A stretch of DNA of 64,000 nucleotides from Candidatus Omnitrophota bacterium (GTDB lineage Bacteria; Omnitrophota; Gorgyraeia; 2-01-FULL-45-10). This document shows, in pieces, positions 7,882 to 64,000 of this stretch. The DNA is taken from NCBI GenBank assembly GCA_020057115.1, contig JAGVGJ010000003.1, forward strand, positions 100,528 through 164,527, in the 5' to 3' direction. The position numbers were made by a program, and so were the translations under genes. Position 1 is the stretch's first letter. Every line of letters begins with the position of its first letter. Under the pieces are notes generated by a model. That model was not told the origin of the DNA. It did no database searches and saw only the letters and a program-made list of their open reading frames with translations.

Positions 7882-8451
7882 TTATTTATATAGATCATAT
7901 TCTGATATATACTGCCTGACCTTGTCCGGAACAAGATACCTTACCGACCTGCCCTCTTTGAGACGGCGTCTTATGTCTTCAGATGATACTTCTATCGGCG
8001 TTATGACGACCGTCTCGACCTCCTTCGGCACCTCTTTAAAGGGATAGCCGGGCCTTGAAGCAACTACGAACTTCGATATCTTGAATATATCATTAACATC
8101 CTTCCAGGAAAAGAGGTCCTTCAGCGAGTCTGATCCCGTTATGAAGAATAACTGCGAATCCTCGCCGAACTTTGACCTGAATTCCTTGAGCGTATCGATG
8201 GAATAGGATTTTTTCTTGGCATCCACCTCGATGGTGGATATGTCAAACGCCGGGTTGTCCTCGATGGCTATCTTGACCATCTTGAGGCGGTGCTTCGGCT
8301 CTATGATAGCCTCCGCCGCTTTATGCGGGGGCGCAAAAGTGGGGACGAATATCAGCTTGTCGAGCTTAAGCTTATGGTAAGCCTCTTCGGCAAGTATCAA
8401 GTGACCTATATGGATGGGATTAAAAGTACCGCCAAGTATGCCTATTCTCAT
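7882..8451 (-). CDS. nadD: nicotinate-nucleotide adenylyltransferase
   Basis: N-terminus MRIGILGGTFNPIHIGHL (HxGH motif). Length 189 aa. Confidence 0.9.
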   Translation of the reverse strand: MRIGILGGTFNPIHIGHLILAEEAYHKLKLDKLIFVPTFAPPHKAAEAIIEPKHRLKMVKIAIEDNPAFDISTIEVDAKKKSYSIDTLKEFRSKFGEDSQLFFITGSDSLKDLFSWKDVNDIFKISKFVVASRPGYPFKEVPKEVETVVITPIEVSSEDIRRRLKEGRSVRYLVPDKVRQYISEYDLYK

Positions 8452-8494
8452 TGCGAGAAACTCCTGTTTATAGCTTACAGCTTATAGCTTAAAG

Positions 8495-9745
8495 CTACCT
8501 TCTGACCTGCCCGCTACCATATATCAGATATTTATAAGATGTCAATTCCTCTATGCCCATGGGGCCGCGGGCATGGATCTTGTCTGTGGATATGCCTATC
8601 TCCGCGCCTTTGCCGAACTCGCCTCCGTCGGTAAATCTCGTGGAGGCATTCACATAGACGCAGGCCGAATCCACCTCTTTGAGGAATTTCGCCTGGGCAT
8701 TCTTATCGCCGGTGATTATGGCGTCGGAGTGGTATGAGCCGTATTTCATTATATGCGATATGGCCTCGTCGACGTTCTTTACGGTCTTGACCGATAGTAT
8801 GAGGTCCAGATATTCTGTATGCCAGTCCTCTTCCTTCGCCAGATTGACGCCGGGGGATATCGACTTTACTTCTTTAGAGCCCCTTATCTCCACGCCGGAG
8901 GCCTCGTAGCGCTTGATCATGCCAGGCAGGAATTTCCGGGCTATCTTCTCGTGGACAAGGAGCGTCTCCATCGCATTGCAGACGCCTGGCCGCTGGACCT
9001 TAGCGTTAAAACATATATCTTCGGCCATCTTCAGGTCTGCCGATCTATCTACATAGGTATGGCATACGCCCTTATAATGCTTGATAACCGGTATGCGCGC
9101 CTTTTCGGTGACATATTTTATGAGCGCCTCTCCGCCTCTCGGCATGGCAAGATCTATAAAATCGCTCTGGGCAAGGAGCTCCTCCATGACCTTCCTGTCG
9201 GGGTTGTCTATCATGGTTATGGCGCCTTCAGGCAGGCCGCATCTTAAGGCGGCCTTGTTGAGGACGTTGAATATCGCGACATTTGAATTTATCGCCTCTT
9301 TGCCGCCTCTCAGTATGACCGCATTGCCGCTCTTCAGGCACAGCCCCGCGCAATCGCTTGTTACATTGGGGCGCGATTCGTATATTATCAGGATAACGCC
9401 TATGGGGACCCTGACCTTTTCTATGACCAGGCCGTTCGGCCTCTTGATGGTCTCAAGCAGATCCCCTACCGGATCGCGCAGCTTCGCTATCTCCAAGAGA
9501 GAGTCAGCCATATCGCCTATCCGCGAAGGCATTAACCTCAGCCTGTCTATCAAAACCCTCGACAGGCCGCTCTTCTCGGCCTTCTCTATGTCTTTTGAAT
9601 TTTCGCTCGCTATGTAGGAAGATTCCCTGCTTAGCGCATCAGCCATGGCGCGAAGCGCGGCATTCTTGGCGCCATTATCCAGGATGGCAAGTCTTCTTGA
9701 CGCCTCTTTCGCCTTCCGGCATATTTTTTTAATATCCGTTTTCAT
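8495..9745 (-). CDS. proA: gamma-glutamyl phosphate reductase
   Basis: Aldehyde dehydrogenase-family ProA motifs (NAKVQRPGVCNAMETLLVHE). Length 416 aa. Confidence 0.9.
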   Translation of the reverse strand: MKTDIKKICRKAKEASRRLAILDNGAKNAALRAMADALSRESSYIASENSKDIEKAEKSGLSRVLIDRLRLMPSRIGDMADSLLEIAKLRDPVGDLLETIKRPNGLVIEKVRVPIGVILIIYESRPNVTSDCAGLCLKSGNAVILRGGKEAINSNVAIFNVLNKAALRCGLPEGAITMIDNPDRKVMEELLAQSDFIDLAMPRGGEALIKYVTEKARIPVIKHYKGVCHTYVDRSADLKMAEDICFNAKVQRPGVCNAMETLLVHEKIARKFLPGMIKRYEASGVEIRGSKEVKSISPGVNLAKEEDWHTEYLDLILSVKTVKNVDEAISHIMKYGSYHSDAIITGDKNAQAKFLKEVDSACVYVNASTRFTDGGEFGKGAEIGISTDKIHARGPMGIEELTSYKYLIYGSGQVRR

Positions 9746-12499: not shown

Positions 12500-12528
12500 A
12501 TTATACCAGCCGGCCGTCAATATGTCAA
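12500..12528 (-). promoter_or_regulatory. consensus sigma70 promoter TTGACA-17nt-TATAAT for the rplU-rpmA-obg operon
   Basis: On the minus strand: TTGACAtattgacggccggctggTATAATttcacac…GGAGGtagcaaATG. The -35 hexamer overlaps the rng stop codon. Confidence 0.7.
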
Positions 12529-14036
12529 GGACCAACTTCATCCACCTTTATATCTTCGATATGGCGGCTTGGATCCTCGGTTATCCTGATATTCTTCCTG
12601 AAATGCCTCTCAATATGCCGTATCATGTTCCTTTCTGGTGATATAACGTACTTGGCCACTTCCGGATTGACCGACACGAATACGCCCTTTGACTTTGGAT
12701 CGGCCAATATCTGGTTTAGTTTCCTTATAAGCTCGATGGCTACGGTAGAAGCGCTCTTCACGGAACCCCTGCCATTGCAATACGGGCACTTCTGATAACT
12801 CTTGCCTTCGATAGACTGCCGCATCCTCTGGCGCGTCATCTCTACAAGGCCGATGCTTGAGATGCTCAAGATATTGGTCTTCGCCTTGTCACTTTCAAGA
12901 TGATGCTCGAGGGTGTTAAATACGCTCTTCCTGTGACCGCCGTATTCCATGTCGATAAAATCTATTATGATTATACCGCCCATGTCGCGCAAGCGCAGCT
13001 GCCTGGGTATCTCTTCGGCGGCCTCCATGTTGGTCCTGTAGGCCGTCTCTTCGAGGTTCCTCTCGCCGACGAACTTCCCGGAATTGACGTCTATGGCTAT
13101 AAGGCTCTCGGTCTCGTCAAACACCAGGTACCCGCCGCTCTTAAGCTGGACGATCCTGTTATAGACCTTGTCTATCTGTTTCTGGATATCATACTTGTCG
13201 AACATCGGGACTTTGTCATGATACAACTTAAGCCTCGTCTTCAACTCCGGCGCATATATATTTAGGAACTTCGATATTCTCTTAAATTCGTTCGGAGAAT
13301 CGACCTCGAACCTTGCCACATCCCCGGTGAATATGTCCCTTACAACCCTTAAGACTATGTCATACTCCTGGTGGATCAAGGACGGCGGCTTCGCTTTCTT
13401 GGCCCTGAACTTTATGTGCTGCCACATCCGGGTAAGGTAGCTTATCTCTCTTTCGATATCCTTCTTCGTCTCGCCGCCGGCCGCGGTCCTGACGATGAAG
13501 CCCATATCTTTGGGAAGCTTCATCTCTTCGAGGATCTTCCTTATCCTGTCGCGCTCGTGGCGGTCGGATATCCTTTTTGAAAGTCCTATATGCTGGTCGA
13601 ACGGCATCATGACTATGAAGCGTCCCGGGATGGAGACATGCGCGGTGAGGCGGGCGCCCTTTGACCTTATAGGCTCTTTCACCACCTGGACGAGGACCTC
13701 GTCGCCTTTTTTGAGTATCTCGTTTATGGGAGGGAGCTTCTTCTCCCTTTCGGGCTTCTTCTTATCCTCTTTCGGCTCTTCCTCGAACAGCTTCTCGTAA
13801 CCTCCGTCGCCCTGGACGACATCGGATACGTACAAAAACCCGTTCTTCTCCAAACCTATGTTGACAAATGCCGCGCCTATCCCGGGCAGGACAGATTCCA
13901 CCTTGCCCTTAAAGATGCTCCCTACGAGGTTCGTAGTATGGAGCCTCTCGATATAGAACTCTTCTATCCGTTTGTTGTCGAGGATAGCGACGCGTTTCTC
14001 GTGCTGGTCCACATTGATATAGATCTCTTTCGGCAT
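12525..14036 (-). CDS. rng: ribonuclease G / RNase E-family endoribonuclease (S1 domain + catalytic domain)
   Basis: 503 aa with an S1 domain near the N-terminus and a Zn-link CPxC(N)GxG motif (CPYCNGRG). Confidence 0.85.
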   Translation of the reverse strand: MPKEIYINVDQHEKRVAILDNKRIEEFYIERLHTTNLVGSIFKGKVESVLPGIGAAFVNIGLEKNGFLYVSDVVQGDGGYEKLFEEEPKEDKKKPEREKKLPPINEILKKGDEVLVQVVKEPIRSKGARLTAHVSIPGRFIVMMPFDQHIGLSKRISDRHERDRIRKILEEMKLPKDMGFIVRTAAGGETKKDIEREISYLTRMWQHIKFRAKKAKPPSLIHQEYDIVLRVVRDIFTGDVARFEVDSPNEFKRISKFLNIYAPELKTRLKLYHDKVPMFDKYDIQKQIDKVYNRIVQLKSGGYLVFDETESLIAIDVNSGKFVGERNLEETAYRTNMEAAEEIPRQLRLRDMGGIIIIDFIDMEYGGHRKSVFNTLEHHLESDKAKTNILSISSIGLVEMTRQRMRQSIEGKSYQKCPYCNGRGSVKSASTVAIELIRKLNQILADPKSKGVFVSVNPEVAKYVISPERNMIRHIERHFRKNIRITEDPSRHIEDIKVDEVGP

Positions 14037-25273: not shown

Positions 25274-25275
25274 AT

Positions 25276-30068: not shown

Positions 30069-30097
30069 AGTATACTCTATATATCTTTTATTGTCAA
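30069..30097 (-). promoter_or_regulatory. consensus-like sigma70 promoter TTGACA-17nt-TATACT for the GGDEF-like gene and pil operon; the -35 overlaps the stop codon of the radical SAM gene
   Basis: On the minus strand: TTGACAataaaagatatatagagTATACT…aGGAGGtaagcgtATG. Confidence 0.6.
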
Positions 30098-31899
30098 ATT
30101 GGCCGCTCTTGAGACAGCTTGACCAGAGCTTCCTTTTTAATGCCTGTATCTATAAGATCCCACGGTAATATCTCTTCGGGATTGCGCTGCCTTGTTATGT
30201 AGAAGGCCGGGTCTATATCCAGCTTTTTGAATGTCTCGATCCACTTGTCAAAATTGAAATATTCCTTCCAGCTGTCGAACTTCGCGCCCGACTTCCAGGC
30301 CTCGTATATGACCTCACCAAGCCGCCTGTCCCCTCTTGAGAACGCGCATTCAAGATAGCTCCTGTCGAAAGCATTAAAATCAAGCTCCACTTTCCTGGAG
30401 CCGACTGCCTTGCGCAGCATGTCCTTCTTCCTCTTAAGGGAATCCACCCCGTCCATCGGATGCCACTGGAAAGGCGTATGCGGTTTCGGCACGAATGCGT
30501 TTATGCTGGCCGAGACATAGGCGGCCTTTCCGTCGACAGCTCTTTTGGAGTTCGATATGTCCTGGGCAAGCCTTGCGATGCTTAAAACGTCTTCGTCCGT
30601 TTCCGTAGGAAGGCCTATCATGAAATACAGCTTAACCCTGTTCCATCCGGCTTTGAACGACTCCTCGACTGCCTTAAAGAGCTTCTCTATCTCTATATTC
30701 TTATTTATGAACTTCCTGAGGCACTCGCTGCCGGATTCCGGTGCGAAGGTAAGCCCGGGCTTCTTCACCTGGGAGAGAAGTATCGGAAGGTTGCTCAATA
30801 TGTCCTGGATCCTCAGGGACGGAACTGATATGGAAACGCCTTTGTCCTTGAAGGCGAGGTTCATCCCCTCCACTATCTCCCTTATCTCGGAATGATCGCC
30901 GGTCGATAGCGACAAAAGCGATATCTCTTCATACCCCGTCTTCTCGCATGACTCTTTCGCAAGTTGGATCACTTTATCTTTTGAGCGCTCGCGCCAGGGT
31001 CTGTAGGTGGCGCCGGAGAGGCAGAACTTGCAAGCGTGTTTACAGCCGCGCAATATCTCTATCGCGATTCGGTCATGGATAGTCTGTATATACGGAACGA
31101 TCTGCGCCGTCGGGTAATACGCATTCTCGAAATCCTTCACGACGCGCTTCTCTATTTTTGGCGAAACGCCCGGATCGATGGGCAAAAAACTTTTAATAGT
31201 CCTGTCGTCGTTGTATTCGACATTGTAGAGAGACGGAACATAGATGCCGGGTATTTTGGCAAGTTCGCGGAGTATTTTTTTTCTGGACCCTGGGACCTGG
31301 AACCTTTCCACTATCTCCGTTATCACTTCCTCGCCATCACCGATAACGAACACGTCTATGAAATCCGCCATCGGCTCGGGATTATAGCACGATGGGCCGC
31401 CTGCGATTATCAAAGGGTCAGAGTCGCTGCGCTCGGATGATCGGATTGGTATGCCGCCCATGTCAAGCATGTTGAGGACATTGGTGTAATTGAGTTCATA
31501 GGCAAAGCTGAAACCGATGATATCAAAATCTTTGATGGGCCTTCGCGATTCGAGGCTATAGAGGCTTATGCTGTTTTTCCGCAAGAGATCCTCAAGATCA
31601 GGCCACGGCGTGAATACGCGCTCGGCAAGGCAATCCTCGCGCTCGTTCAGGATACCGTAGAGTATCCTCAAGCCCAGGTAACTCATCCCGACATCGTAAA
31701 GGTCGGGAAACGCCAGAAGCACCTTCGTCCTGGCGGCCGTCCAATCTTTCTTTATCTGGTTCCACTCCCCGCCGATATATCTCGCAGGCCTCTGAACTAA
31801 CGGAAATATTTCTTCTAAATTCATGGCCCCATTATACCAGAAAACCCGCAAAAATAGGGACGTTTCTAAATCTGATCTTGGGACGTTTGTAAATTCCAT
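30094..31899 (-). CDS. TIGR03960-family B12-binding domain / radical SAM protein (true start possibly the ATG at 31824)
   Basis: Radical SAM CxxxCxxC (CKHACKFC), a B12-binding-like N-terminus, and the family start …RPARYIGGEWN. Confidence 0.85.
   Translation of the reverse strand: MEFTNVPRSDLETSLFLRVFWYNGAMNLEEIFPLVQRPARYIGGEWNQIKKDWTAARTKVLLAFPDLYDVGMSYLGLRILYGILNEREDCLAERVFTPWPDLEDLLRKNSISLYSLESRRPIKDFDIIGFSFAYELNYTNVLNMLDMGGIPIRSSERSDSDPLIIAGGPSCYNPEPMADFIDVFVIGDGEEVITEIVERFQVPGSRKKILRELAKIPGIYVPSLYNVEYNDDRTIKSFLPIDPGVSPKIEKRVVKDFENAYYPTAQIVPYIQTIHDRIAIEILRGCKHACKFCLSGATYRPWRERSKDKVIQLAKESCEKTGYEEISLLSLSTGDHSEIREIVEGMNLAFKDKGVSISVPSLRIQDILSNLPILLSQVKKPGLTFAPESGSECLRKFINKNIEIEKLFKAVEESFKAGWNRVKLYFMIGLPTETDEDVLSIARLAQDISNSKRAVDGKAAYVSASINAFVPKPHTPFQWHPMDGVDSLKRKKDMLRKAVGSRKVELDFNAFDRSYLECAFSRGDRRLGEVIYEAWKSGAKFDSWKEYFNFDKWIETFKKLDIDPAFYITRQRNPEEILPWDLIDTGIKKEALVKLSQERPI
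31275..31310 (+). repeat. heptamer-repeat element copy 1 (TTTTTTTTCTGGACC CTGGGAC CTGGAAC CTTTCCA), in frame inside the TIGR03960 gene (encodes …[11 protein letters not shown]…)
   Basis: Read directly from the sequence. Confidence 0.8.
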
Positions 31900-41656: not shown

Positions 41657-42104
41657 GGGATTCTTTTTTCAGGAGAATGTTAAAGGCCAAAATTATCGTC
41701 CCGACCGTTATGCATGAATCCGCGACGTTAAATACCGGCCACACGCGAAAGTCGAACATGTCTATGACATAACCAAGCCATACCCTGTCGATGAGGTTGC
41801 CGGCGGCTCCGCCCAGTATAAGCCCGAGCGAAACAGCGAGCATCCGGCCCTTGATCCTGTTCATGACAAGATAGGCCGTTATGAAAGCTATCACAAAAGC
41901 CGAAAATATGCTGAAGACGAGCGTGCCGCCCTTAAAGACGCCGAATGCCGCGCCCGTATTATGGACGAGCGTGATATTGAATACGCCGGCTATGACATCC
42001 GTAGATTCCCCCGGCGTCATGCCCCTCACCGCCATTATCTTGACGATCCTGTCGGCTGCCAGCGCTGCAAGCGCGACAAGGAACGCCGAGACTGAGCTCG
42101 TCAT
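41637..42104 (-). CDS. lspA: lipoprotein signal peptidase II
   Basis: …VFNVADS… conserved Asp region. Shows the typical ileS-lspA linkage. Confidence 0.85.
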   Translation of the reverse strand: MTSSVSAFLVALAALAADRIVKIMAVRGMTPGESTDVIAGVFNITLVHNTGAAFGVFKGGTLVFSIFSAFVIAFITAYLVMNRIKGRMLAVSLGLILGGAAGNLIDRVWLGYVIDMFDFRVWPVFNVADSCITVGTIILAFNILLKKESHASCTH

Positions 42105-42583
42105 TTAGCCTCGTTGGCCTTCTGGCATTCTATGCAAAGAGACGTGTGCGGAATAGCGTGCAACCGCTTCCTGCTTATGGCCTTGTCACACTGGAGGCAA
42201 GTGCCGTAGATCCCGTCTTTTATGCGGCGAAGCGCCTCGTCTATCCTGTAAAGGAGCTTCTGCTCGTCCGTCGCTCTGCCCAGAGAAAATTCGACATCAT
42301 AATTGTCGCTTGCGGAATCGGCCATGTGATACGAATACCCGGAAAGGTCTCCGGAGGCATCCCTCTGCGAGCGGTTGAGCGTCTCTTTGGCTATGAATGA
42401 CAGGTCGCCGCCGATCTTCTCCCTCTCTTTGATCAGGAGCGCCTTATAGATCTTCAGCTCCTTGGCAGGCAGCTTCTTCACGGCCTTTTTTACGACCTTC
42501 TTCACGGCCTTTTTCACGGCCTTCTTTACCGGCCTTGCCCTCTTCAACGTCTTCCTCTTCGCCACTTTCTTCTGCTTTGCCAT
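42101..42583 (-). CDS. DksA/TraR-family C4 zinc-finger protein with a lysine/alanine-rich N-terminal tail (KKAVKKAVKKVVKKAVKK)
   Basis: C-terminal CLQCDKAIS…CIECQ zinc finger. The N-terminal tail is encoded by near-perfect 18-21 nt tandem repeats at about 42470-42545. Confidence 0.75.
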   Translation of the reverse strand: MAKQKKVAKRKTLKRARPVKKAVKKAVKKVVKKAVKKLPAKELKIYKALLIKEREKIGGDLSFIAKETLNRSQRDASGDLSGYSYHMADSASDNYDVEFSLGRATDEQKLLYRIDEALRRIKDGIYGTCLQCDKAISRKRLHAIPHTSLCIECQKANEAK

Positions 42584-42614
42584 TTGGATATTTCTCCTTT
42601 TCGCGTTATACCCT

Positions 42615-45413
42615 TTAAGAGACCACCTTGACGCATCTCTCGCATAGCGTCGGGTGGGAGGGTTCCCTCCCCACGGCCTCGCTATAATTCCAGCACCTCT
42701 GGCACTTCTGCCCAAAAGCCTTATCCACACGGATAGCCACCGGGATCGCCCCGTCCATGTCTTTAACGTCCGCGGCGCCTTCGGCTATATCCACACCGGA
42801 TACGATAAATATATATCTCAACTCATCCTTCTTCTCTTTCAACAGTTCTTTTAATTTAGCGTCGCCCGTGGAAAGCGAGAGCCGAGCCTCAAGGCCCGAA
42901 CCTATCTCTCCGGCCTGGCGCTTCTCCTCGAGCTTCTTTAATACCGCTTCGCGCAAGGAAGCGAGCGTCGCCCATTTCTCGTCCAGCTTCACATCATGCC
43001 ACTTGTCAAAATTATCCTTCGGCCAATCTTCGAGATGGACAGATCCCGATTTCTTGCCGAGTTTCACGTGCTCCCACGCCTCATCCGCGGTGACCGCAAG
43101 AAGCGGGGCCATGATCTTTAATAACGCCATCAACAGCTCATGCATGGCCGTCTGCCCGGAACGCCTCTCGAGAGAATCGGCCTTGAAGGTATACATCCTG
43201 TCTTTCAGGACATCGAGGTATATCGACGATATGTCGGTCACGCAAAAGTTATAAACATCCCTGTAGACCTTATGGAACTGGAATGTCTCGTAGTTCTTCG
43301 CTGTCTCCCTGATAAGGCCGGCGAGCCTTGAAAGTATCCACCTGTCTATCTCGAGCATCTTCTCGTGCTGAATATAATTCTTAGCCGGGTCAAAATCATA
43401 GAGATTGCTCAGCATGTATTTATAGGTATTTCTTATCTTCCTGTATGCATCCGCAAGCCTTGTCAGGATCACGTCCGAAAGCCTTATGTCTTCCGAGTAA
43501 TCGCTGGACGCTACCCATAGCCGCAATATATCGGCGCCATACTTCTTCATCACCTGTTCGGGCGTTATGACATTGCCCATCGACTTCGACATCTTCTTGC
43601 CGTCGCCGTCGACTACGAATCCGTGGGTGAGGACATTCTTGTAAGGCGGCATCCCGTCTATGCCCATGCCCGTGATAAGAGCCGACTGGAACCACCCCCT
43701 GTGCTGGTCGGATCCTTCAAGGTAAAGCTCGCAAGGATAGTCCATATTCTTGTCGTGCTTTAATACGGCCTGATGGCTCACGCCTGAATCGAACCATACG
43801 TCAAGGATGTCCGTCTCTTTGGTAAAATCTTTCCCGCCGCACTTCTTGCACGCGGTCCCGGCAGGCAGAAGCTCGGACTCTTTCCAGGAGAACCAGACAT
43901 CCGCGCCGTCTTTCTCGAATAGCCCGGCGACATGTTTTATAACTTTTCCTTCCAGGAGGACCTCTTTGCAGCCCTTGCAATAGAATGCGATTATCGGAAC
44001 CCCCCAATACCTCTGCCTCGACAGGCACCAGTCAGGCCTGTTCTGGACCATAGACTTTATCCTGTGCTCGCCGATCTCCGGTATCCACTTTACATCTTTT
44101 GATATCACCGATACCAGTTTATCTCTCAAGCCATTATGGTCTATCTTCATGAAATACTGGTCTGTGGCCCTGAATATGATGGGCTTCTTGCAGCGCCAGC
44201 AATGCGGATATGAATGGGTGATGTCTTCGACTTTTAGCAATGCGCCGATCGCTGCAAGCTTCTCCGCTATCGGCTTATTCGCTTCATATACTTTCATACC
44301 GCTGAATTCGCCGCAGGTATTGTCAAATCTGCCCTTAGGGTCGACCGGCATTATTGTGGGAAGATCATATTTTCTCCCCGTCTGGTAGTCATCCTGTCCA
44401 TGGCCCGGCGCCGTATGGACGCAGCCGGTGCCATCCTCCATAGAGACATATCCGGCGCATACGACCCTTGAATCTCTGTCTATGAAAGGATGCTTAGCGA
44501 TCAATCCCTCGAGTTCTTTACCCTTCACGGTCTTTAAGATCTTGTATTCCTTTATCCCGAATTTCTCCATCGACCTTTCCAAAAGCGCTTTGGCAAGGAT
44601 GTATATCTCTTTTTCTGGAACCTGGGACCTGGAACCTGGAGCCTCTACGTACACATACTCCAGGTCCGGATGCACGGCGATAGCGACATTCGCGAGCAGC
44701 GTCCACGGCGTCGTCGTCCATATCACGAAAAACGTTTCTGGACCCTGGACCCTTGCCCCCCCTTGAGTTAATTTGAATTTAACATAGATCGACGGCGACG
44801 TCTTATTCTCATACTCGACCTCCGCCTCTGCAAGCGCCGTCTCGCATGTCGCGCACCAATTGACCGGCTTTAATGATTTATAAATATATCCTTTCTCTAC
44901 GAGTTCTCCGAAAGAACGGGCTATCTCTGCTTCATAGGACTTCGAGAGCGTAAGATACGGTTTCTCCCAATCGCCCAGTATACCGAGCCGCTTGAACTGG
45001 TCACGCTGGATGGCGACATACTTCATCGCATAATCGGAAGCAAGTGATCTAAACTTCACCTGGTCGATATCATACTTGGTCATTTTGAGCTCTTTAAAGA
45101 GCTGGTGCTCGACAGGCAGGCCATGGCAATCCCATCCCGGGATATACGGAGAATCGAATCCGGCCATCGTATAATATTTTACGACTATATCTTTAAGGAG
45201 TTTGTTGAGCGCATGGCCCATGTGGATATTGCCATTGGCATAAGGAGGGCCGTCGTGGAGAACGAATTTCTTCTTTCCTTTAGACCTCGACCTGATCTTG
45301 CCGTATAAGTCGGCATCCTGCCACTTTTTGACATACTTCGGCTCGCGATTAGGCAGGTCCGCCTTCATCGGAAAATCGGTATTCGGTAGATTGAGTGTGT
45401 TTTTATATTCCAT
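42615..45413 (-). CDS. ileS: isoleucyl-tRNA synthetase (two in-frame heptamer-repeat insertions)
   Basis: HMGH and KMSKS motifs, the editing-domain WTTTPWT motif, and a C-terminal zinc finger. Confidence 0.95.
44610..44643 (+). repeat. heptamer-repeat element copy 2 (TTTTTCTGGAAC CTGGGAC CTGGAAC CTGGAGC), in frame inside ileS (encodes …[13 protein letters not shown]…)
   Basis: Read directly from the sequence. Relative to the E. coli IleS alignment it corresponds to an insertion of about 8 aa. Confidence 0.8.
44734..44762 (+). repeat. heptamer-repeat element copy 3 (GTTTCTGGACC CTGGACC CTTGCCCCCCC), in frame inside ileS (encodes …[10 protein letters not shown]…)
   Basis: Read directly from the sequence. 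Confidence 0.75.
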
Positions 45414-45415
45414 AT

Positions 45416-45463
45416 TTTTCCCAGGACCCTTGCCCCTGGCCCCTGGTTCCTGGAACCTGGCTC
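45416..45463 (+). repeat. heptamer-repeat element copy 4 (TTTTTCCCAGGACC CTTGCCC CTGGCCC CTGGTTC CTGGAAC CTGGCTC). It fills the whole mtnP-stop/ileS-start spacer and ends 3 nt from the ileS ATG
   Basis: Read directly from the sequence. Confidence 0.85.
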
Positions 45464-46333
45464 CTACTTAATATATTTCCCTATTATCAGCTCGAGATCT
45501 TTCTTCGTCTTCGCCGGTATCATAGCTGGATTCGTGACTATCGCGTCTTTGAGGGCGCTCGCGCAGGCGCACTTGCGCTCTCGGCCTATCTTCTTTACGA
45601 CCGTCCTTAAAATGCTCTTCGAGACATCTACGTTCTTCAAAAGATTCTTTATGATCATATCAAGCGATACCGTCTCGGTGGCCTCATCAAGATACCAGCA
45701 GTCATAGTCTGTGATACAGGCGAGCGTCGCATAGCATATCTCGGCCTCTCTGGCGCATCTCGCCTCGCCAAGGTTCGTCATACCGATGATATCCATGCCC
45801 CACATCCTGTATAGTTCAGACTCAGCTTTGGTCGAGAATTGCGGCCCCTCCATGTTAAGATATTTACCGTCGAGATGAACGTTCGCGCCGACCTCTTTGC
45901 CGGCATCATAAAGAAGTTTCGACAGGCAGCCGCAGACAGGGTCAGCAAACTGTATATGGACGACTATTCCGTCCCTAAAGAATGTCGTGCGCCTGGCCTG
46001 GCTCGTCCTATCGACGAACTGGTTGGGTATGACGATATCGAGCGGCTTCAACTCTTTGCGCAGGCTCCCGCACGCTGAAACAGATATTATCTGTTCGACT
46101 CCGAGCTTCTTCATCCCGTAAATATTGGCGCAGTAATTGAGCTCGCTCGGGCTTATAGAATGCCCTTTTCCGTGGCGAGCCAGAAAAACGACCTCTTTCC
46201 CCTCAAGCGTGCCTGTCATATAGTCATCGGAAGGATTCCCGAAAGGCGTCTCGATCTTAACCTTCTTTACATTGGTCAAGCCTTCCATATCGTAAAAACC
46301 GCTGCCGCCTATAATCCCTATTTTTCCGCCCAT
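45464..46333 (-). CDS. mtnP: S-methyl-5'-thioadenosine phosphorylase / PNP-family-2 nucleoside phosphorylase
   Basis: [12 protein letters not shown]… plus PNP_UDP_1 motifs. Confidence 0.8.
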
Positions 46334-47464: not shown

Positions 47465-47476
47465 AGTTAACTACCT

Positions 47477-47510
47477 CCAGGGTCAAGGGGCCAGGGTCCG
47501 GGGTCCAGAA
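47477..47510 (-). repeat. heptamer-repeat element copy 5, inverted orientation (plus strand reads CCAGGGTCAAGGGGCCAGGGTCCGGGGTCCAGAA). It encodes the yggS C-terminal tail …NSGPRTLAP* and lies just upstream of the proC SD
   Basis: Read directly from the sequence. Confidence 0.85.
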
Positions 47511-48184
47511 TTATGAAATAACGCCCTACCTACCCTGACGATATTTGCGCCTTCTTCTATTGCGACTTCAAAATCATTGGACATGCCCATGGATAATAAC
47601 AAGGGGCCAGGGGCCAGGGGCCAGGGGCCAGAAATTTTATCACGCAGTTCCCATAAAGCCTTAAAATACGGGCGCGCTTCTTCCTGGTCATCAACCTCAG
47701 GCGCCATGGTCATGAGTCCCTTAATACTAATATTTGGATATAATACTATACATTTAATAAGGCCGGCGACCTCTTCCGGACTTATTCCGAATTTACTCTG
47801 CTCACCGGAGACATTCACCTCTATCAGGATATCCTGCACCTTGCCGAGCTTTTTGGCTTCTTTGTCTATCTCTTTTGCAAGGCGCTCGCTGTCTACGGAA
47901 TGTATCAAGGACGCTATTCTTACGGCGTCCTTTACTTTATTCGTCTGCAGGTGCCCTATCAAATGCCATGTCGCCCTGCTGCCTATCGAAGCATATTTTG
48001 ATACAAGCTCCTGAACCCTGTTCTCGCCCAGCTCCTTCATCCCCAAAGCCAGAAGTTCTTCCGCTTCCGGGATGCCGACTTCCTTCGTAACCGAGACAAG
48101 CCGCACATCCTCTTTAAGCCTGCCTGATCTCTCGCAAGCCCTTACCATTCTTTCGGTTACGATTTTAAGGTTGTCTCGTATCAT
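47483..48184 (-). CDS. yggS: YggS-family PLP homeostasis protein (internal and C-terminal segments encoded by the heptamer repeat)
   Basis: …LHLIGHLQTNK… and …LSMGMSNDFEVAIEEGANIVRVG… Start chosen at MIRDNLKIV. Confidence 0.85.
   Translation of the reverse strand: MIRDNLKIVTERMVRACERSGRLKEDVRLVSVTKEVGIPEAEELLALGMKELGENRVQELVSKYASIGSRATWHLIGHLQTNKVKDAVRIASLIHSVDSERLAKEIDKEAKKLGKVQDILIEVNVSGEQSKFGISPEEVAGLIKCIVLYPNISIKGLMTMAPEVDDQEEARPYFKALWELRDKISGPWPLAPGPLLLSMGMSNDFEVAIEEGANIVRVGRALFHNSGPRTLAP
47600..47634 (-). repeat. heptamer-repeat element copy 6, inverted orientation ((GGGGCCA)x4 on the plus strand). It is in frame inside yggS (encodes …KISGPWPLAPGPLL… in the loop before LSMGMS)
   Basis: Read directly from the sequence. 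Four perfect GGGGCCA units. Confidence 0.85.
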
Positions 48185-48221
48185 TTTGACAGGATAAAAT
48201 AGCACAAAGGAAGGCAAAAGT

Positions 48222-49893: not shown

Positions 49894-52017
49894 CTATATA
49901 TGTTTTAATTCTTCTATCTTTTTTTCTACCATTTCGCGTTCTTGCGCAGAAGGATTCAGCAAAATATATTTTTCGAAATATCCTATAGCCTCTTCCCTCT
50001 TGTCGGGATATTTTGAGTAGATGATCGCGATATTCTTATACGCCCCGGCCTCTTTTTCGGATATCTCGATGACCTTTTTGAATTGGCTCACGGCCTCTTC
50101 ATCCTTTCCGGTCATACCATAAAGGACACCGAGATTATTATGCAATGTTATGCTCTCGGGGGCCATCTCGAGCGCCTTATTACATTCTGCGATCGCATTT
50201 TCGTAGTCTCCGGATTCGGCAAATTTATTCACGGCCTTGAGCTGCTCGTCGAGCGCGGCGGAAGCCGACATTATAGCGTCTAACCTCTTAAGGTTAGCCG
50301 CCAGCTCTTTTGAAGACGGAGCTGCCTCGATACCTTTTGACCATGCCTCTTTAGCCTTGTCGAGAAAGCCTTTATCTGCATAGCCTATCCCGAGCGCATT
50401 GAAGGCAGCGCCATTTTTAGGATCGAGCTTTACCGCCTTCTCCAAAAGCTTTATTGCCATATCTTCCTGGCCAGTCTCCATCATCGCCTGCGCGAACACA
50501 ACATAAGAATTGGACGAATCCGGATTTACTTTAACGGCCTCATTAAAATATCGCATGGCATCTTCGGAATGGCGCAGGCGCGCGTGCGCCACGGACATCG
50601 AGAGAAGCGTGTTAAGATCGTCGGGAGCTCTCTTCAGGACCTTGTCGAACTCCTCTATCGCCTCGCGATACTTCTTTGCCTCAAGATGCTGCGAGCCCAG
50701 ATTATAATGGGCGCGGAAATGGACTTTCTTGTATTTCGCGATGTATGAAAAGAGCGTCTTTTCGTCTTTCCAGAATCGGTTGACATATACGGTGACGGAT
50801 GCGTATGCAAGCATTGTTACGATGATAAAGACCAGAAAACATACCGCTACTACTTTAGGGGACAGGTCTGTCCTGTGGGAATTTACTTTCCCAGACCTGT
50901 CCCCTATAACGAAGGGCCTGTCGCCTATAATACTTGTGATAACATAAGCGACTAGTATCGATACGCCGAAGAATGGTATGTAGAGCCAGTGCTCTGATAT
51001 CGGCGCATTGAGCGGCACGATAAGATTTAGCGACGGGAACAGGAATATGAAGAACCATGCCAATCCCATGCGGACACGCTTATCTTCTTTGGCGGGCTTC
51101 CAAAAAAGCAATGCTAATATTCCGAGAACAATAAGCGACACGATAACGCCCGTATTGAAAAAACTTAAAGGAACTTCGATGTCCCTGTCCATCCTCAAGT
51201 CATAAGGAAGGACTACAAGCCTTAGATATGTAGCAATTACCGGACCGAGCATCAAGAGCCGCCTCGACAAAGGCGGAGCATTTATCGCCTGGGCTTCGAA
51301 TGGCGCAAACTTTAAAATAGTTACGCGCAGCGCCAGATATATCAATCCAACCGCAAGAAGGGCGTAGAAGATAGATTTTCTCTCTTTCCACTTCCCTGAC
51401 CATAAAAGATATAGCCCTGCGAATACCGGGAGCATGACGCATAGCTCCTTTGAAAGAAGCGCCAGTATGAATGCGGCCGCGCAAACGGCCGCATTTAAAC
51501 CGCGCGCGGCTTCCCTGTCCTTGAACAAAAATGCCGCGGCTACGAGAAGAAAGAACAGGGCTAAAAGATCGGCCCTGCCCGCTATATAGGTGACCGCTGA
51601 CGTCTGGAGCGGATGGACTGTAAAGATGAGCGCGCCGAAGAAAGAGGCGGCGCTGTTCCGGAAGAGCATCAATAATAATAAGAATATGAGCGCGCCGTTC
51701 AGGGAATGGATAATGGCATTCGCCAGGTGATAGCCGGCAGGCTCCTTCCCCCACAAGAAGAAGTCAGCCATATAGGAGAGCGATTGCAGCGGCCTGTAGA
51801 AGTTGCTGCGGTCAAGAAAATGGATCAGGTCGTGGGTGAATATAGTCTTTATATTATTGAGCGTTACTGATTTTATGTCGGGGTTATTGAGGATGAGGTT
51901 CTTGTCATCCCATACAAATCCGTTCGGGATGGAATTAAGGTATATGCCAAAACCGATGAAGAATAGGACCAGGATCAGTGTAAGGTTCTTTTTGGACCCT
52001 CGGACCACATCCTCCAC
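49894..52017 (-). CDS. TMTC-like polytopic membrane protein (PMT_2/DUF1736-like glycosyltransferase-family domain) with C-terminal TPR repeats
   Basis: About 11 TM segments with an FYRPL motif, then multiple TPR units. A GTG start is inferred. Confidence 0.65.
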   Translation of the reverse strand: MEDVVRGSKKNLTLILVLFFIGFGIYLNSIPNGFVWDDKNLILNNPDIKSVTLNNIKTIFTHDLIHFLDRSNFYRPLQSLSYMADFFLWGKEPAGYHLANAIIHSLNGALIFLLLLMLFRNSAASFFGALIFTVHPLQTSAVTYIAGRADLLALFFLLVAAAFLFKDREAARGLNAAVCAAAFILALLSKELCVMLPVFAGLYLLWSGKWKERKSIFYALLAVGLIYLALRVTILKFAPFEAQAINAPPLSRRLLMLGPVIATYLRLVVLPYDLRMDRDIEVPLSFFNTGVIVSLIVLGILALLFWKPAKEDKRVRMGLAWFFIFLFPSLNLIVPLNAPISEHWLYIPFFGVSILVAYVITSIIGDRPFVIGDRSGKVNSHRTDLSPKVVAVCFLVFIIVTMLAYASVTVYVNRFWKDEKTLFSYIAKYKKVHFRAHYNLGSQHLEAKKYREAIEEFDKVLKRAPDDLNTLLSMSVAHARLRHSEDAMRYFNEAVKVNPDSSNSYVVFAQAMMETGQEDMAIKLLEKAVKLDPKNGAAFNALGIGYADKGFLDKAKEAWSKGIEAAPSSKELAANLKRLDAIMSASAALDEQLKAVNKFAESGDYENAIAECNKALEMAPESITLHNNLGVLYGMTGKDEEAVSQFKKVIEISEKEAGAYKNIAIIYSKYPDKREEAIGYFEKYILLNPSAQEREMVEKKIEELKHI

Positions 52018-52026
52018 GCTTCGCTC

Positions 52027-52060
52027 CGCCGCCTGGCGCCTGGTACCCGGTACCTGGAAC
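52027..52060 (+). repeat. heptamer-repeat element copy 7 (CCGCCTGG CGCCTGG TACCCGG TACCTGG AACC) between the ftsA stop and the TMTC-like gene start. A partial TTTTTGGACCCTCGGACC motif at 51989-52006 lies inside the first codons of that gene
   Basis: Read directly from the sequence. Confidence 0.65.
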
Positions 52061-53146
52061 CTAGAAATAGTTATTGAATATATCGACTACTCTTGCCGAG
52101 ACATGCTGCAGTATGTTCTTGGCCTGGATGGCCTTTGCCCTGTGCCTGGCCTCGCCGTATCTTATAAGCCCGAGCGCTGTGGTGAGCCGCACGCTGTCTA
52201 TGCTCGATATGTCGCCCTTAACGGCTCTCGGGGTTCCCATCCTTACCGGGCATGACAGTTTCGCTTCAACCAGCTCTATGATACCGTCCTCGAACGCCAG
52301 CCCGCCCGTAAGGACCACTGATACCTCTTTGCCCGTCTTCTTCGAGAACTCATCTATCTTCGTCTTCACCCTGCCGAGCAGGTCATTTAACTCGAAACTC
52401 TCCTTCAGGTCGCCCTTAAGGTCATGCCTTCCCGAGGGTATTATATCGATATCGCTCAAGTTCCCGCCGGCAAATAGCGAGACTTCCGTAAGGGATGCCC
52501 CTATATTGAGTATGACGGCGCCGTTATCTTTATCTTCTTCGCTCAACAGGCTCATCCCGTCCGCTATGCCGGTATAGACGACATCTTTTACGTCATACCC
52601 CGCCTCATTTATACACTTGTAGATATTCTCAATATGGTTTATGGCGGCGCTTATGACGTACATCTCGCAAGCCAGGCGCGACGCGTAAAGGCCGAGAGGG
52701 TTCTTTATGCTGGGCTGGTCGTCGATCGAAAAACTTAAGACTATTTTATGTATTATATCCCTGTCATAAGGAAGCTGGATGGTGCTGGCGACGTTCATGC
52801 ATCTTTCTATGTCGCCCTTTGAGATCTCCCTTCCTCTCATGGATAACGGGATCATGCCTTTCGGCTTCTCGGCCTTTATCGCCTGGCCGCTTATATTGAC
52901 ATAGATATTACCGAGCCCTTCCGGGCCCACTTTCTCTTTCAGCTTCGCGAGCGCTTTTATCACCGAATCCACGCCTTCGCTTAAGTCGGTGAACGCCCCG
53001 CGGGATACGCCTCTGGACTGGACGCTTGCCTGGGCGAGTATCGTCAATATCCCGTCTTTGTCCATCTCCGCGGCCACAGCCGAGACTTTTGTAGAACCGA
53101 TGTCGACGCCTGTTATTATCAGCGATCTCTTTTCAAGTATCTTCAT
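52061..53146 (-). CDS. ftsA: cell division protein FtsA
   Basis: Actin-like ATPase motifs …GVDIGSTKV…, in the ftsQ-ftsA position. Confidence 0.9.
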   Translation of the reverse strand: MKILEKRSLIITGVDIGSTKVSAVAAEMDKDGILTILAQASVQSRGVSRGAFTDLSEGVDSVIKALAKLKEKVGPEGLGNIYVNISGQAIKAEKPKGMIPLSMRGREISKGDIERCMNVASTIQLPYDRDIIHKIVLSFSIDDQPSIKNPLGLYASRLACEMYVISAAINHIENIYKCINEAGYDVKDVVYTGIADGMSLLSEEDKDNGAVILNIGASLTEVSLFAGGNLSDIDIIPSGRHDLKGDLKESFELNDLLGRVKTKIDEFSKKTGKEVSVVLTGGLAFEDGIIELVEAKLSCPVRMGTPRAVKGDISSIDSVRLTTALGLIRYGEARHRAKAIQAKNILQHVSARVVDIFNNYF

Positions 53147-54877: not shown

Positions 54878-54896
54878 TTTGCTCCTTGCTTCATGC

Positions 54897-54930
54897 ACAC
54901 TGGACCCAGGACCCTGGACCCTTGACCCTT
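54897..54930 (+). repeat. heptamer-repeat element copy 8 (CACTGGACC CAGGACC CTGGACC CTTGACC CTT) between the murB stop and the ddl SD
   Basis: Read directly from the sequence. Confidence 0.85.
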
Positions 54931-55880
54931 CACATAACCTTTATCTCGAGCTCAAGGTCTATATTATAATTCTCTTTGACCTTGGACTTCACAAAATCTA
55001 TCAGGCCCTTCACGTCCTCGGCTGTCGCGCCTTTTCGGTTCACTATGAAATTGCCGTGCTTCTCCGATATCTCCGCACCACCCACCTTCTTGCCTTTTAA
55101 ACCCAGCATGTCTATCATCTGGCCGCAAGTGAACTGAAAGCCTTCCGGGTTCTTGAATACGCATCCTGCGCTCGGCACGTCGAGCGCCTGCTTCTGGCGC
55201 TTCATGGTCAGGAATTTGGAACAGCTGGAATTCAATACCTCTTTATCGCCCTTCTCAAGTTTAAAGACAACCTGCAATATTATGCATGAAGAGAGATTGG
55301 ACTTCCTGTATCCGAACTCTATCCTGTCTCTCTTGATGGTTCTGATATTCCCGCTGTGATCCATCACTTTCACGGAAGATACGAACTCGCCAATATTCTT
55401 GAATATGGGGTTTGACGATCCGCCGGCATTCATATACAGCGCGCCGCCTAAAGTGCCGGGTATGCCTACGAGCGATTCCATGCCGGTCAAACCTTCATTG
55501 CAGCAGAAACGCACAAGGCTTGCGATGCTCGATCCCGCCCCGGCCGTAACTGTGCCGCCCTTAGCCGACATATCTTTAAAGTGCGGCGACCCCAGGTGTA
55601 TAACCATGCCTTTAATGCCGCTGTCGCTCACCAGGAGGTTGGAGCCCCCGCCTACGACGACAAATGGGGTCTTGTTCTCTTTTGCGAAAAGAAGCGCCTT
55701 CTTCAGCTCTTTAGGATCATGAGGCTCGACCCATAGATCGGCCGGGCCGCCTATCCTGAAAGTCGTGTGGCGTCCAAGGTTCTCCTGCAATAATACTTTA
55801 CCTTTGATCTTCTTTTTGAGGTCATCTATCATCTTATCGTCCATATCTTTAATTAGCGTTAAGCCGCGCTGAGAGCTCAT
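54930..55880 (-). CDS. murB: UDP-N-acetylenolpyruvoylglucosamine reductase
   Basis: FAD-binding PCMH domain plus the MurB C-terminus. Confidence 0.9.
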   Translation of the reverse strand: MSSQRGLTLIKDMDDKMIDDLKKKIKGKVLLQENLGRHTTFRIGGPADLWVEPHDPKELKKALLFAKENKTPFVVVGGGSNLLVSDSGIKGMVIHLGSPHFKDMSAKGGTVTAGAGSSIASLVRFCCNEGLTGMESLVGIPGTLGGALYMNAGGSSNPIFKNIGEFVSSVKVMDHSGNIRTIKRDRIEFGYRKSNLSSCIILQVVFKLEKGDKEVLNSSCSKFLTMKRQKQALDVPSAGCVFKNPEGFQFTCGQMIDMLGLKGKKVGGAEISEKHGNFIVNRKGATAEDVKGLIDFVKSKVKENYNIDLELEIKVM

Positions 55881-61894: not shown

Positions 61895-61936
61895 TTTTTT
61901 TCTGGACCCTGGCCCCTGGCCCCTGGCCCCTTCACC
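61895..61936 (+). repeat. heptamer-repeat element copy 9 (TTTTTTTCTGGACC CTGGCCC CTGGCCC CTGGCCC CTTCACC). It fills the murF-stop/mraY-SD spacer
   Basis: Read directly from the sequence. Confidence 0.9.
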
Positions 61937-63289: not shown

Positions 63290-64000
63290 CTATTCTTTCT
63301 GGACCCCGGACCCCGGACCCTGGCCCCTTCTATTATCTCTCTTGCAACTTTGCAATCATCGAACGGATGCACCTCACCCCCAACGATCTGATATTTCTCA
63401 TGCCCTTTGCCAGCTATCACCACTATATCATCCGCGGACGCGCCATTTAACGCCTTCTCTATCGCCTTGCGCCTGTCAGCTACGATGTCGTAATTATTAA
63501 ATAATCCTTTGACGCCAAGCTCTATCTCTTTAATGATATCAGCCGGATCCTCGAACCGGGGATTGTCCGAAGTTATGACTACCCTGTCGGAAAACTCGCA
63601 AGCCGTCTTGCCCATGAGCGGCCTCTTAGTCCGGTCCCTGTTGCCGCCGCATCCGAATACGGTTATTATCCTCTTGTTTCTTGCCACATCCTTTAAAAGG
63701 CCCAATACATTATAAAGCGCATCCTGGGTATGGGCAAAATCGACGAATACCTTGAAAGGCTGCCCTGCGGATACAGGCTCAAGCCTGCCTGGCGCAAAGG
63801 TCACGGTCTCGACGCCTTCCTTTATGGCTTTAAAATTTATCTTCTCGTGATATGCCACAGCGACTGCTGCAAGTATATTCGACACATTGTGCCTGCCGAT
63901 AAGCTTTGTTTCAACCAGGATGTTCCCTCCCGGAGTATTTATCGTGAACCTTGAGCCGCTAAGCGATATCTCTAGACCAACGGCTCTTATATCGGACCCC
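63286..64000 (-). CDS. murE: UDP-N-acetylmuramoyl-tripeptide synthetase MurE, 3' portion (runs off the window). The last ~13 codons (…ARVRGPGSRKNR*) are encoded by a heptamer-repeat element
   Basis: …GRHNVSNILAAVAV… Mur ligase central/C-terminal domains. The open frame continues to the window edge. Confidence 0.85.
   Translation of the reverse strand, partial: GSDIRAVGLEISLSGSRFTINTPGGNILVETKLIGRHNVSNILAAVAVAYHEKINFKAIKEGVETVTFAPGRLEPVSAGQPFKVFVDFAHTQDALYNVLGLLKDVARNKRIITVFGCGGNRDRTKRPLMGKTACEFSDRVVITSDNPRFEDPADIIKEIELGVKGLFNNYDIVADRRKAIEKALNGASADDIVVIAGKGHEKYQIVGGEVHPFDDCKVAREIIEGARVRGPGSRKNR
63294..63332 (+). repeat. heptamer-repeat element copy 10 (TTCTTTCTGGACC CCGGACC CCGGACC CTGGCCC CTTCT). 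It forms the murE 3' coding tail and abuts the murF ATG
   Basis: Read directly from the sequence. Confidence 0.85.

Follow-up and report, generated by a model that had tools for sequence, protein, structure and literature searches.

The stretch of DNA analysed here, 64,000 nucleotides (nt) of Candidatus Omnitrophota contig JAGVGJ010000003.1 (positions 100,528 to 164,527 of the forward strand; hereafter the window), carries ileS, the gene for isoleucyl-tRNA synthetase (IleRS), in which two short arrays of tandem heptanucleotides are translated in frame. The gene lies at 42615..45413 on the minus strand and, judged from its open reading frame (ORF) and translation, a solved homologue, and sequence motifs, encodes an intact type-1 enzyme of 932 amino acids (aa). 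Its 932 codons translate without a stop, and the product has all the features of type-1 bacterial IleRS: the HIGH/KMSKS signatures (HMGH at aa 64-67 and KMSKS at aa 607-611), a connective peptide 1 (CP1) editing domain with a threonine-rich peptide (WTTTPWT at aa 232-238, followed by ILAKAL at aa 272-277), a Zn-binding C-terminus in which the Zn-finger cysteines are retained, and similarity over its full length to solved enzymes. It is 49% identical to Priestia megaterium IleRS1 (8c9e) across the entire protein (E = 0) and aligns at full length with Staphylococcus aureus IleRS (1ffy; E = 4e-276), while precomputed Pfam matches to PF00133, PF08264, and PF06827 are recorded for an identical protein, P0001. 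More than 200 invariant alignment columns are preserved, and the catalytic and editing motifs are intact.

The first of the two arrays in the order of translation, site 1, lies at 44735..44765 on the minus strand and reads CAAGGGGGGGCAAGGGTCCAGGGTCCAGAAA. Its ten-residue peptide (aa 217-226, window 44736-44765) is positioned upstream of WTTTPWT, six residues before it. Site 2, at 44609..44646 on the same strand, reads GGCTCCA GGTTCCA GGTCCCA GGTTCCA GAAAAAG and corresponds to aa 258-269; its ten-residue peptide (aa 258-267, window 44613-44642) sits between WTTTPWT and ILAKAL. Tandem Repeats Finder (TRF) assigned a period of 7 to both, with 2.3 copies and 100% matches at site 1 (44738-44753) and 4.3 copies and 86% matches at site 2 (44615-44644). 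Read along the gene strand, the 7-nt unit is GGNNCCA (of CTGGNNC type on the plus strand), and the peptides are exact read-outs of this unit in three successive frames. At site 1, a canonical G-quadruplex motif runs through a G7 run; site 2 has G2 runs only and no canonical motif. The initial annotation had proposed two repeat copies in frame within ileS, a proposal that the stop-free 932-aa reading frame and the period of both arrays bear out. It had located one copy after WTTTPWT and the other before ILAKAL, which describes the site 2 peptide correctly but not the site 1 peptide, which precedes WTTTPWT.

In an AlphaFold2 model of the window IleRS built with 55 orthologues (mean predicted local distance difference test [pLDDT] score of 80.6; template modelling scores of 0.82-0.85 to solved type-1 IleRS), both sites lie within the CP1 editing domain at the tips of beta-hairpins. 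Strands 204-217 and 226-233 are connected by the turn that forms site 1, where pLDDT falls below 50 at aa 219-223, and strands 252-259 and 268-274 by the turn that forms site 2, where it does so at aa 263-266, in agreement with the earlier view that the copies occupy variable loops. Their position at hairpin tips, the low model confidence, and an alignment gap relative to 8c9e suggest that both loops are surface-exposed. On the basis of position and model confidence, the peptides are most likely functionally neutral, unstructured loop extensions. The length that appears to have been inserted depends on the reference chosen (P. megaterium IleRS1, the related protein P0002, or other Omnitrophota): site 2 is 8 aa longer than in P. 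megaterium and 7 aa longer than in P0002, while site 1 is 1 aa longer than in P. megaterium, 5 aa longer than in most relatives of 71-76% identity, and 1 aa shorter than in P0002.

Repeats in the window were detected by dispersed-repeat grouping, TRF, and a period-7 scan. Grouping placed both ileS copies in one family with copies at 31277, 45416, 54894, 61896, and 63293, and the period-7 scan added GGNNCCA-type arrays at 47476, 47599, and 52032. The pattern CCAGGNNCCAGGNNCCAG, with up to two mismatches, matched 28 times in 10 arrays, compared with a mean of 0.33 and a maximum of 2 matches in 100 dinucleotide-preserving shuffles, none of which reached 28. The copies therefore belong to a dispersed DNA repeat family, as had been claimed from the sequence at the outset. 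TRF copy numbers ranged from 2.3 to 5.6 and were mostly 4.3-4.7. On its G-rich strand, a typical copy reads (G)AAGG GGCCAGG GGCCAGG GGCCAGG GTCCAG AAAA and measures about 30-38 nt, and CCAGAA closes 7 of the 10 arrays. The GGNNCCA arrays, including those of mixed units, are free of stop codons in all six frames, and copies whose net length is a multiple of three are therefore simply read through. Stop-freedom in six frames was also considered as a special property of this unit, but it is shared by 8264 of the 16384 possible heptamers.

Five of the arrays lie in spacers between co-directional genes (pnp/ileS, ftsA and a gene with tetratricopeptide repeats [TPR], murB/ddl, murF/mraY, and part of yggS/proC), two form the C-termini of genes (MurE and a YggS-like protein), and four lie in frame inside ORFs (the two in ileS and one each in a radical SAM and the YggS-like gene). 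Immediately ahead of ileS, an array of about six units (45416..45467, minus strand) fills the 50-nt gap between the stop codon of the PNP_UDP_1 gene (45464-45466) and the ileS ATG (45413). The radical SAM array (31277..31314, minus strand) encodes a 10-residue peptide in frame at the end of the Radical_SAM_N2 domain of a 601-aa protein (30094..31899). Within the YggS-like gene (47483..48217, minus strand) lies a perfect (GGGGCCA)4 array at 47599..47633 on the plus strand (TRF, 4.3 copies, 100%), which is in frame and encodes ISGPWPLAPGPL, with its G-rich strand antisense to the gene. A second array at 47476..47508, also G-rich on the plus strand, supplies the last 8-9 codons of the same gene (NSGPRTLAP*) and abuts the proC ribosome-binding site. 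The remaining copies, all on the minus strand, are a degenerate array at 52026..52064 between ftsA (52061..53146) and the 707-aa TPR/PMT_2 gene (49894..52017), one in the murB/ddl spacer (54894..54933) with a canonical G-quadruplex motif, a near-perfect GAAGGGGCCAGGGGCCAGGGGCCAGGGTCCAGAAAAAA array in the murF/mraY spacer (61896..61933; TRF, 4.3 copies, 95%), and one at 63293..63330 that makes up the final 13 codons of MurE (EGARVRGPGSRKNR*), directly ahead of the murF ATG.

All ten arrays fall between 31 and 64 kb, in the region of the rod-shape, dcw, and ileS clusters. The first 31 kb, which includes type IV pilus genes, RNase G, argS, and mfd, has no GGNNCCA array and only one of an unrelated heptamer, (TTATAGC)4 at 8468..8496 (no strand assigned), in the spacer between ORFs 7882..8451 and 8495..9745. 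This second unit also occurs in degenerate form at the YggS loop of a relative (L008, ~3850-3890). All 4-kb blocks show negative GC skew on the plus strand, and almost every gene is encoded by the minus strand, which makes the latter the probable leading strand; it also carries the G-rich strand of 8 of the 10 arrays.

The nearest genomes to the window are metagenome-assembled genomes of Candidatus Omnitrophota with IleRS of 71-74% identity and a shared gene order of yggS-proC-yggT-pnp-ileS-dksA-lspA. The closest distinct relative of the protein itself is P0002 (85% identity), and the 90% cluster of the protein identical to the window IleRS has no variants inside it. At site 2, P0002 reads VRISG-------NETYILAKAL: the array is absent and the loop is 7 aa shorter, equal to 21 nt or three units. 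Site 2 is 5-6 aa shorter in L007 and L008, and 3-8 aa shorter overall in close relatives and the solved structure. Alignment with these relatives shows the site 2 copy as a lineage-specific gain. At site 1, most relatives of 71-76% identity have an 11-aa state, ESVYNDMPAxF, which is 5 aa shorter than in the window. The corresponding segment of P0002 (ELKREEGGGKREDKTYF) is about as long as that of the window and is encodable by another heptamer array, with KREEGGGKRE equivalent to (AAGAGGG)n. As read from the alignments, the array at site 1 occupies or replaces a naturally variable loop and is not a simple insertion. The proposal of a lineage-specific insertion, made before orthologues had been aligned, consequently holds for site 2, where P0002 and the majority of the other relatives fall short of the window by 6-8 aa, and not for site 1, where a loop has been replaced. 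Orthologue segments of equal length had been named as evidence that would count against insertion; P0002 has one at site 1, but it is built of a different heptamer array. No conserved DNA target motif was evident at the two sites in aligned orthologue DNA.

Similar turnover was seen at other positions. The pnp/ileS spacer, 50 nt in the window, measures 1-14 nt in P0002, L002, L007, L008, L130, and L133, and comparison of these loci shows the window array as a gain relative to close relatives. The same spacer holds other arrays, with units of 7-8 nt, in L001, L131, L132 ((GGGTAAC)n), and L134 ((GAGTTGA)n). In L001 (~4830-4915) and L131 (~2775-2857), it contains an inverted pair, composed of a G-rich/CCAG-type array, an A-run, and a complementary array, from which a long hairpin could form. 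Arrays at the YggS loop consist of (CTGGCCC)4 in the window, (CTAAACG)4 in L001, and, in degenerate form, (AGCTTAT)n in L008; the L002 loop is shorter by 7 aa (21 nt). The C-terminal array extension of the YggS-like protein is missing from the L130, L131, L007, and L002 orthologues. A radical SAM homologue in L070 (43% identical) has a different segment, longer by 4 aa, at the position of the window array. An independent insertion at this same site in L070 was considered and rejected, as the L070 array lies elsewhere in the gene.

We then scanned 120 Omnitrophota IleRS proteins for peptides of at least 9 aa that could be encoded by a perfect heptamer array with at most one mismatch. Such peptides were present in 20 of the 120, and every match fell at site 1 or site 2, with none in the remainder of the approximately 930 residues. 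About 15 different lineage-specific units were represented among the 20 proteins, for example PNTQYPIPNT from (CCCAATA)n, TNDERRTTNDE from (GAACGAC)n, and QSAICNLQSAI from (ATCTGCA)n; in P0113 both sites are filled, site 1 by VTSHQSPVTS and site 2 by VTSHKSQVTS. At the DNA level, arrays were confirmed in L130 ((AGTCACC)4.7 and (GTCACAA)4.6, one at each site), L131 ((CCCAATA)4.6), L132 ((ACGAACG)4.6), and L005 ((GTCACCA)4.1). Closely related proteins could differ: outside the loops P0065 and P0097 share 95.5% identity, but at site 1 one has QVTRSPDRQVTRSSGHQVTAEYF and the other ALMDNNTTLNTYF, and P0089, 91% identical to P0065, has an empty site 1 (ELKEGTSF). P0006 and P0018, which are 90.5% identical, likewise have different units. 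At site 1 of L133 (1635-1691), an octamer array, (CAGGTCAC)7.1, encodes a peptide with an 8-aa period in an IleRS that is 95.5% identical to an array-free relative, so this hot spot accepts 8-nt as well as 7-nt units. The DNA of L133, L134, and L135 (91-95% protein identity) shows clear presence and absence of arrays with diverged flanks and no clear target duplication. Taken at the level of aligned sequences, these comparisons show that the two loops are recurrent, fast-evolving array sites at which arrays are gained, lost, and exchanged much faster than the rest of the protein diverges.

Loop lengths were distributed in discrete peaks. Across the 120 orthologues, site 1 ranged from 8 to 48 aa, with maxima of 39 proteins at 11 aa, 18 at 18 aa, and 12 at 8 aa and a lower count of 5 at 15 aa. 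Site 2 peaked at 10-11 and 15 aa, with 18 aa in 8 proteins; the window has 18 aa at this site compared with a base state of 10-11 aa. Because the unit is 7 nt, whole-unit changes keep the frame only in steps of three units (21 nt, 7 aa). A general survey with TRF of 206 kb of Omnitrophota DNA found 30 arrays of period 7, 4 of period 14, 6 of period 8, and 2 of period 6, along with 14 and 12 of the codon-compatible periods 9 and 12, respectively. Copy number in this sample clustered at 4.1-4.7 whatever the unit.

Beyond Omnitrophota loci, a metagenome scan for CCAGGNNCCAGGNNCCAGAAA matched at least 120 contigs of 35-72% GC from soils, sediments, and peat, indicating that CCAGG-type heptamer arrays are widespread beyond this genome. 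The arrays were mostly 25-32 nt long, and the matches listed included 14 inverted neighbouring pairs, such as L029:958-1053, L121:460-572, and L099:1216-1320. Some contigs combine several different heptamers; L015, for example, carries (GATCGCT)n, (CTGGTCC)n, and (CTGAACG)n side by side. The CCAGAAA end of these matches was part of the search pattern and is hence not independent evidence. Classifying the arrays as coding or non-coding from stop-free stretches was uninformative, as contigs of high GC content have long ORFs by chance.

Dispersed heptamer arrays have a precedent in the short tandemly repeated repetitive sequences (STRRs) of cyanobacteria, which comprise several unrelated unit families per genome, are mostly intergenic, and remain unexplained in both function and mechanism of spreading. 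STRRs are not known to occupy internal loops of core enzymes in frame. They resemble the window arrays in being dispersed tandem heptamers of several unrelated families, and differ in phylum and units. STRR heptanucleotides were first described in Calothrix PCC 7601 according to a citation in PMC4692102, which also cites an older proposal that polymerase slippage favours heptamers. The same paper reports a preference for four units among the repeats of Xanthomonas (GGGAATC) and Nostoc (GGGGA(C/T)T), with no function identified (Rehm et al. 2015, PMC4692102). Like the window arrays, these are dispersed tandem 7-nt units with a G3-4 tract, lie mainly between co-oriented ORFs near stop and start codons, include occasional inverted pairs, and are found at the same gene context of relatives, with varying length and sequence (PMC4692102). 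In contrast to them, the window unit is GGNNCCA with a CCWGG pentamer, its host belongs to an uncultured phylum, some copies have only G2 runs, and a higher share lies in ORFs (4 of 10 inside and 2 forming C-termini, in a 64-kb sample).

The TAACTGA repeats belong to the same kind: arrays of 2-6 copies occur in Beggiatoaceae, cyanobacteria, and Bacteroidetes, mostly in intergenic regions just upstream of start codons (MacGregor 2015, PMC4679880). In that study, 24 sets overlapped ORFs, with the repeats mostly at the ends of the proteins, and it was suggested that, should the repeats be mobile, the insertions that persist are mainly those at protein peripheries (PMC4679880). TAACTGA has stops in all three forward frames, leaving one orientation that can be coding, whereas GGNNCCA is open in all six; in addition, the ileS arrays occupy internal loops within the catalytic body of a synthetase, and arrays recur at these two loops across a phylum. 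Rickettsia palindromic elements (RPEs) lie in frame in many housekeeping genes, and their peptides are compatible with fold and function (Ogata et al. 2000, as summarized in PMC10969869). [quoted passage not shown] Phase-variable contingency loci share slippage-prone short tandem units inside ORFs with the window arrays, but they usually lie in dispensable, surface-related genes such as those for surface antigens, whereas the window arrays occur in core metabolic genes. The ileS arrays have a core synthetase as host, both are in frame, and orthologue lengths favour 7-aa steps; since a change of one or two units would frameshift ileS, they are not an on/off switch. With their 7-nt head-to-tail units, dispersal above chance over 64 kb, about four units per array, and location in co-oriented spacers, the window arrays belong to the known class of dispersed heptameric tandem repeats, with a new phylum, a new unit, and an unusual location. 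We found no literature linking heptanucleotide repeats with Omnitrophota.

The explanation we favour, and consider probable, is that the two ileS segments are members of a genome-wide family of heptamer arrays that arise by slippage or template switching, are selected into permissive sites, and persist as tolerated neutral loops. Slippage of the DNA in a register of 7 nt would produce and alter the arrays, and new loci of one unit would probably be seeded by template switching, copy-choice, or recombination with existing arrays, a route of spread that would require no element-encoded enzyme. Selection would then remove harmful copies, with survivors found in co-directional spacers, at extreme C-termini, and in permissive surface loops. 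In IleRS, the tips of the editing-domain hairpins would be lengthened or replaced by peptides rich in Gly, Pro, Ser, Arg, and Gln that are tolerated and not used. The statement in the initial annotation that an essential enzyme tolerates repeat-derived inserts is largely supported by the data above, with ileS presumably essential as the only copy.

Several observations weigh against this explanation. We infer slippage and template switching as the origin of the arrays, but one unit with A-rich ends at 10 separate loci is not explicable by local slippage alone, and the shared unit and ends require a copy-and-paste or template-switch step. The mode of ~4.3-4.6 units also applies to Omnitrophota units that are not G-rich, and is accounted for by neither slippage nor G-quadruplex formation. 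Unrelated units form near-perfect arrays at the same orthologous positions, and the octameric (CAGGTCAC)7 array in L133 indicates that the register is usually but not strictly 7. The exact junctions are blurred, with diverged flanks in L133, L134, and L135. Finally, the suggested neutrality of the peptides derives from loop position and low model confidence, and site 1 is only six residues ahead of the threonine-rich editing peptide.

The initial annotation had instead regarded the copies as selfish, and we considered whether the arrays are a miniature mobile element, similar to MITEs, RPEs, or REPINs (hairpins formed by paired repetitive extragenic palindromic [REP] sequences), that is moved in trans, with the ileS copies representing chance in-frame transpositions. 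The uniform size of ~30-38 nt, the conserved ends (AAGG...CCAGAAA) across 10 loci, and the filled and empty states at ileS site 2, the pnp/ileS spacer, and the YggS loop would all be expected of such an element. It would also resemble RPEs, which insert in frame into unrelated metabolic genes (PMC10969869), and (CCAGGNN)n arrays ending in CCAGAAA recur in at least 120 metagenome contigs, often as inverted pairs capable of forming hairpins. However, that ending was built into the search pattern, and presence/absence polymorphism is equally predicted by slippage or recombination. The single arrays in the window are direct tandem repeats that have no terminal inverted repeats and for which only weak hairpins are predicted; inverted pairs occur in some other genomes but not at the ileS copies. 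No target-site duplication was visible in the comparison of L133, L134, and L135, the flanks of which have diverged. No gene for a transposase, a REP-associated tyrosine transposase (RAYT), or a reverse transcriptase was found in the window or in the flanks of related loci. A pure tandem interior, variable unit number, and mixed variants are typical of a simple-sequence repeat, and several unrelated unit families per lineage are harder to attribute to one dedicated enzyme. The selfish character proposed earlier thus found no support in the termini, the insertion sites, or the neighbourhood, and we consider a mobile element unlikely.

Alternatively, the arrays could be functional nucleic-acid elements that form G-quadruplexes or bind proteins in DNA or polycistronic mRNA and thereby tune transcription, translation, or the processing of mRNA between genes, with four units selected because four G-tracts or binding sites are needed and the ileS copies being by-products or translational pause sites at a domain boundary. 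A canonical fourfold G3+N1-7 motif is present in 7 of the 10 arrays, and quadruplexes were predicted for 4. Predicted RNA structures that include quadruplex energies reached -30.6 kcal/mol for (GGGGCCA)4 and -14.5 kcal/mol for ileS site 1. The G-rich strand is the sense and probable leading strand in 8 of the 10 arrays, and within operons arrays lie directly between a stop codon and the next start. The four-unit preference and in-vitro quadruplex formation reported for the Xanthomonas and Nostoc repeats (PMC4692102) and the translational role proposed for TAACTGA repeats (PMC4679880) point in the same direction. On the other hand, orthologous spacers in relatives function at 1-14 nt in the absence of an array, G runs at ileS site 2 are limited to G2, and the authors of the G-quadruplex study identified no regulatory role (PMC4692102). 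Units elsewhere that are not G-rich (AGTCACC, CCCAATA, ACGAACG, and CTAAACG) share the mode of ~4.3-4.6 units, on which ground we rejected G-quadruplex formation as the general reason for four units. No Rfam family was matched at gathering thresholds across the whole window, and this empty scan also excludes an RNA family already described as the source of the repeat. We therefore regard a functional role of this kind as doubtful.

We regard as equally doubtful the idea that the arrays, instead of being passive products of slippage, are written by an unrecognised process, possibly directed by an enzyme or a template, which places a block of ~30 nt (~4.3 units, net +21 nt) into or over recurrent sites, using a unit specific to the lineage. 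Such a process would explain several observations: arrays that are near-perfect and similar in length but made of unrelated units in different lineages at IleRS sites 1 and 2, the YggS loop, and the pnp/ileS spacer; the mode of about four units among those incapable of forming G-quadruplexes; and analogous arrays in cyanobacteria, Xanthomonas, Beggiatoaceae, and many metagenome contigs. If it were true, in-frame copies in conserved proteins would be a natural, base-resolution record of its mechanism.

We judged it highly improbable that the loops are under diversifying selection at the protein level, imposed for example by phage, a toxin, or an antibiotic-like inhibitor, with arrays as the raw material. 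Extreme turnover is limited to two loops of a protein that is otherwise 90-95% conserved, and both loops are in the CP1 editing domain, which speaks for this idea. Nevertheless, the same arrays fill spacers as well as loops or termini of the YggS-like protein, MurE, the radical SAM protein, and the N-terminus of a DksA-like protein in L130, and their presence in non-coding spacers and unrelated housekeeping proteins implies that the driver acts at the DNA level and genome-wide. Moreover, the peptide sequence is dictated by the repeat unit and has no recognisable motif, and many lineages retain a short, array-free loop. That nothing was inserted, and an ordinary loop resembles the repeat by chance or composition, can be practically dismissed: both positions vary in length in all IleRS and the closest relative has an equally long site 1 segment, but the tandem heptamer matches nine other arrays in the window (eight outside ileS), the shuffles reject chance or compositional bias as its source, the peptides follow the unit exactly in three frames, and the P0002 segment is itself a heptamer array.

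Dispersed heptanucleotide repeats, described as STRRs since 1990, are over-represented in many bacteria, although neither their spread nor their function has been established (PMC4692102, PMC4679880). In Omnitrophota, heptamer arrays also colonise internal surface loops of core enzymes, and the two IleRS hairpin tips are recurrent landing or turnover sites across the phylum. Because the surrounding IleRS is highly conserved, filled, empty, and differently filled loop states can be aligned precisely. The loops thereby allow junctions, step sizes (the 21-nt quantum), and rates to be inferred, something that intergenic copies do not permit. In marker proteins used in the phylogenomics of uncultured phyla, such as aminoacyl-tRNA synthetases, low-complexity peptides of 7-15 aa derived from the repeats inflate apparent divergence and generate indels.

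Arrays could possibly mislead gene callers as well. The Joint Genome Institute (JGI) call for ileS is 917 aa long and starts at Met16, 15 codons late (window 45369-45413). The upstream 15 residues are conserved in all orthologues, which places the true start at the ATG (45413) that immediately follows the heptamer array; the array may have misled the public start prediction. Just downstream of ileS, a DksA/TraR-type zinc-finger ORF (42101..42730, minus strand) contains a 12-nt tandem repeat at 42473-42536 (5.2 copies) that encodes a (KKAV)n N-terminal tail. The long, GTG-started form of this ORF, which overlaps the 3' end of ileS, is probably an over-call, with a likely start at MAKQKK. In L130, the N-terminus of the DksA-like protein is encoded by an (AAGTCAC)n heptamer array (L130:12831-12863).

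Two further observations concern the first 31 kb of the window. At 23555-27009, tandem PilB/GspE-type ATPase paralogues (572 and 577 aa; T2SSE and MshEN domains) share about 72% nucleotide identity over several segments, with PilC before the pair and a PilT-like ATPase after it. The RNase G gene (12525..14036) contains an imperfect repeat of ~21-23 nt at 13737-13781, which encodes a Lys/Glu-rich segment, EEPKEDKKKPEREKK, before the RNase E/G catalytic domain.

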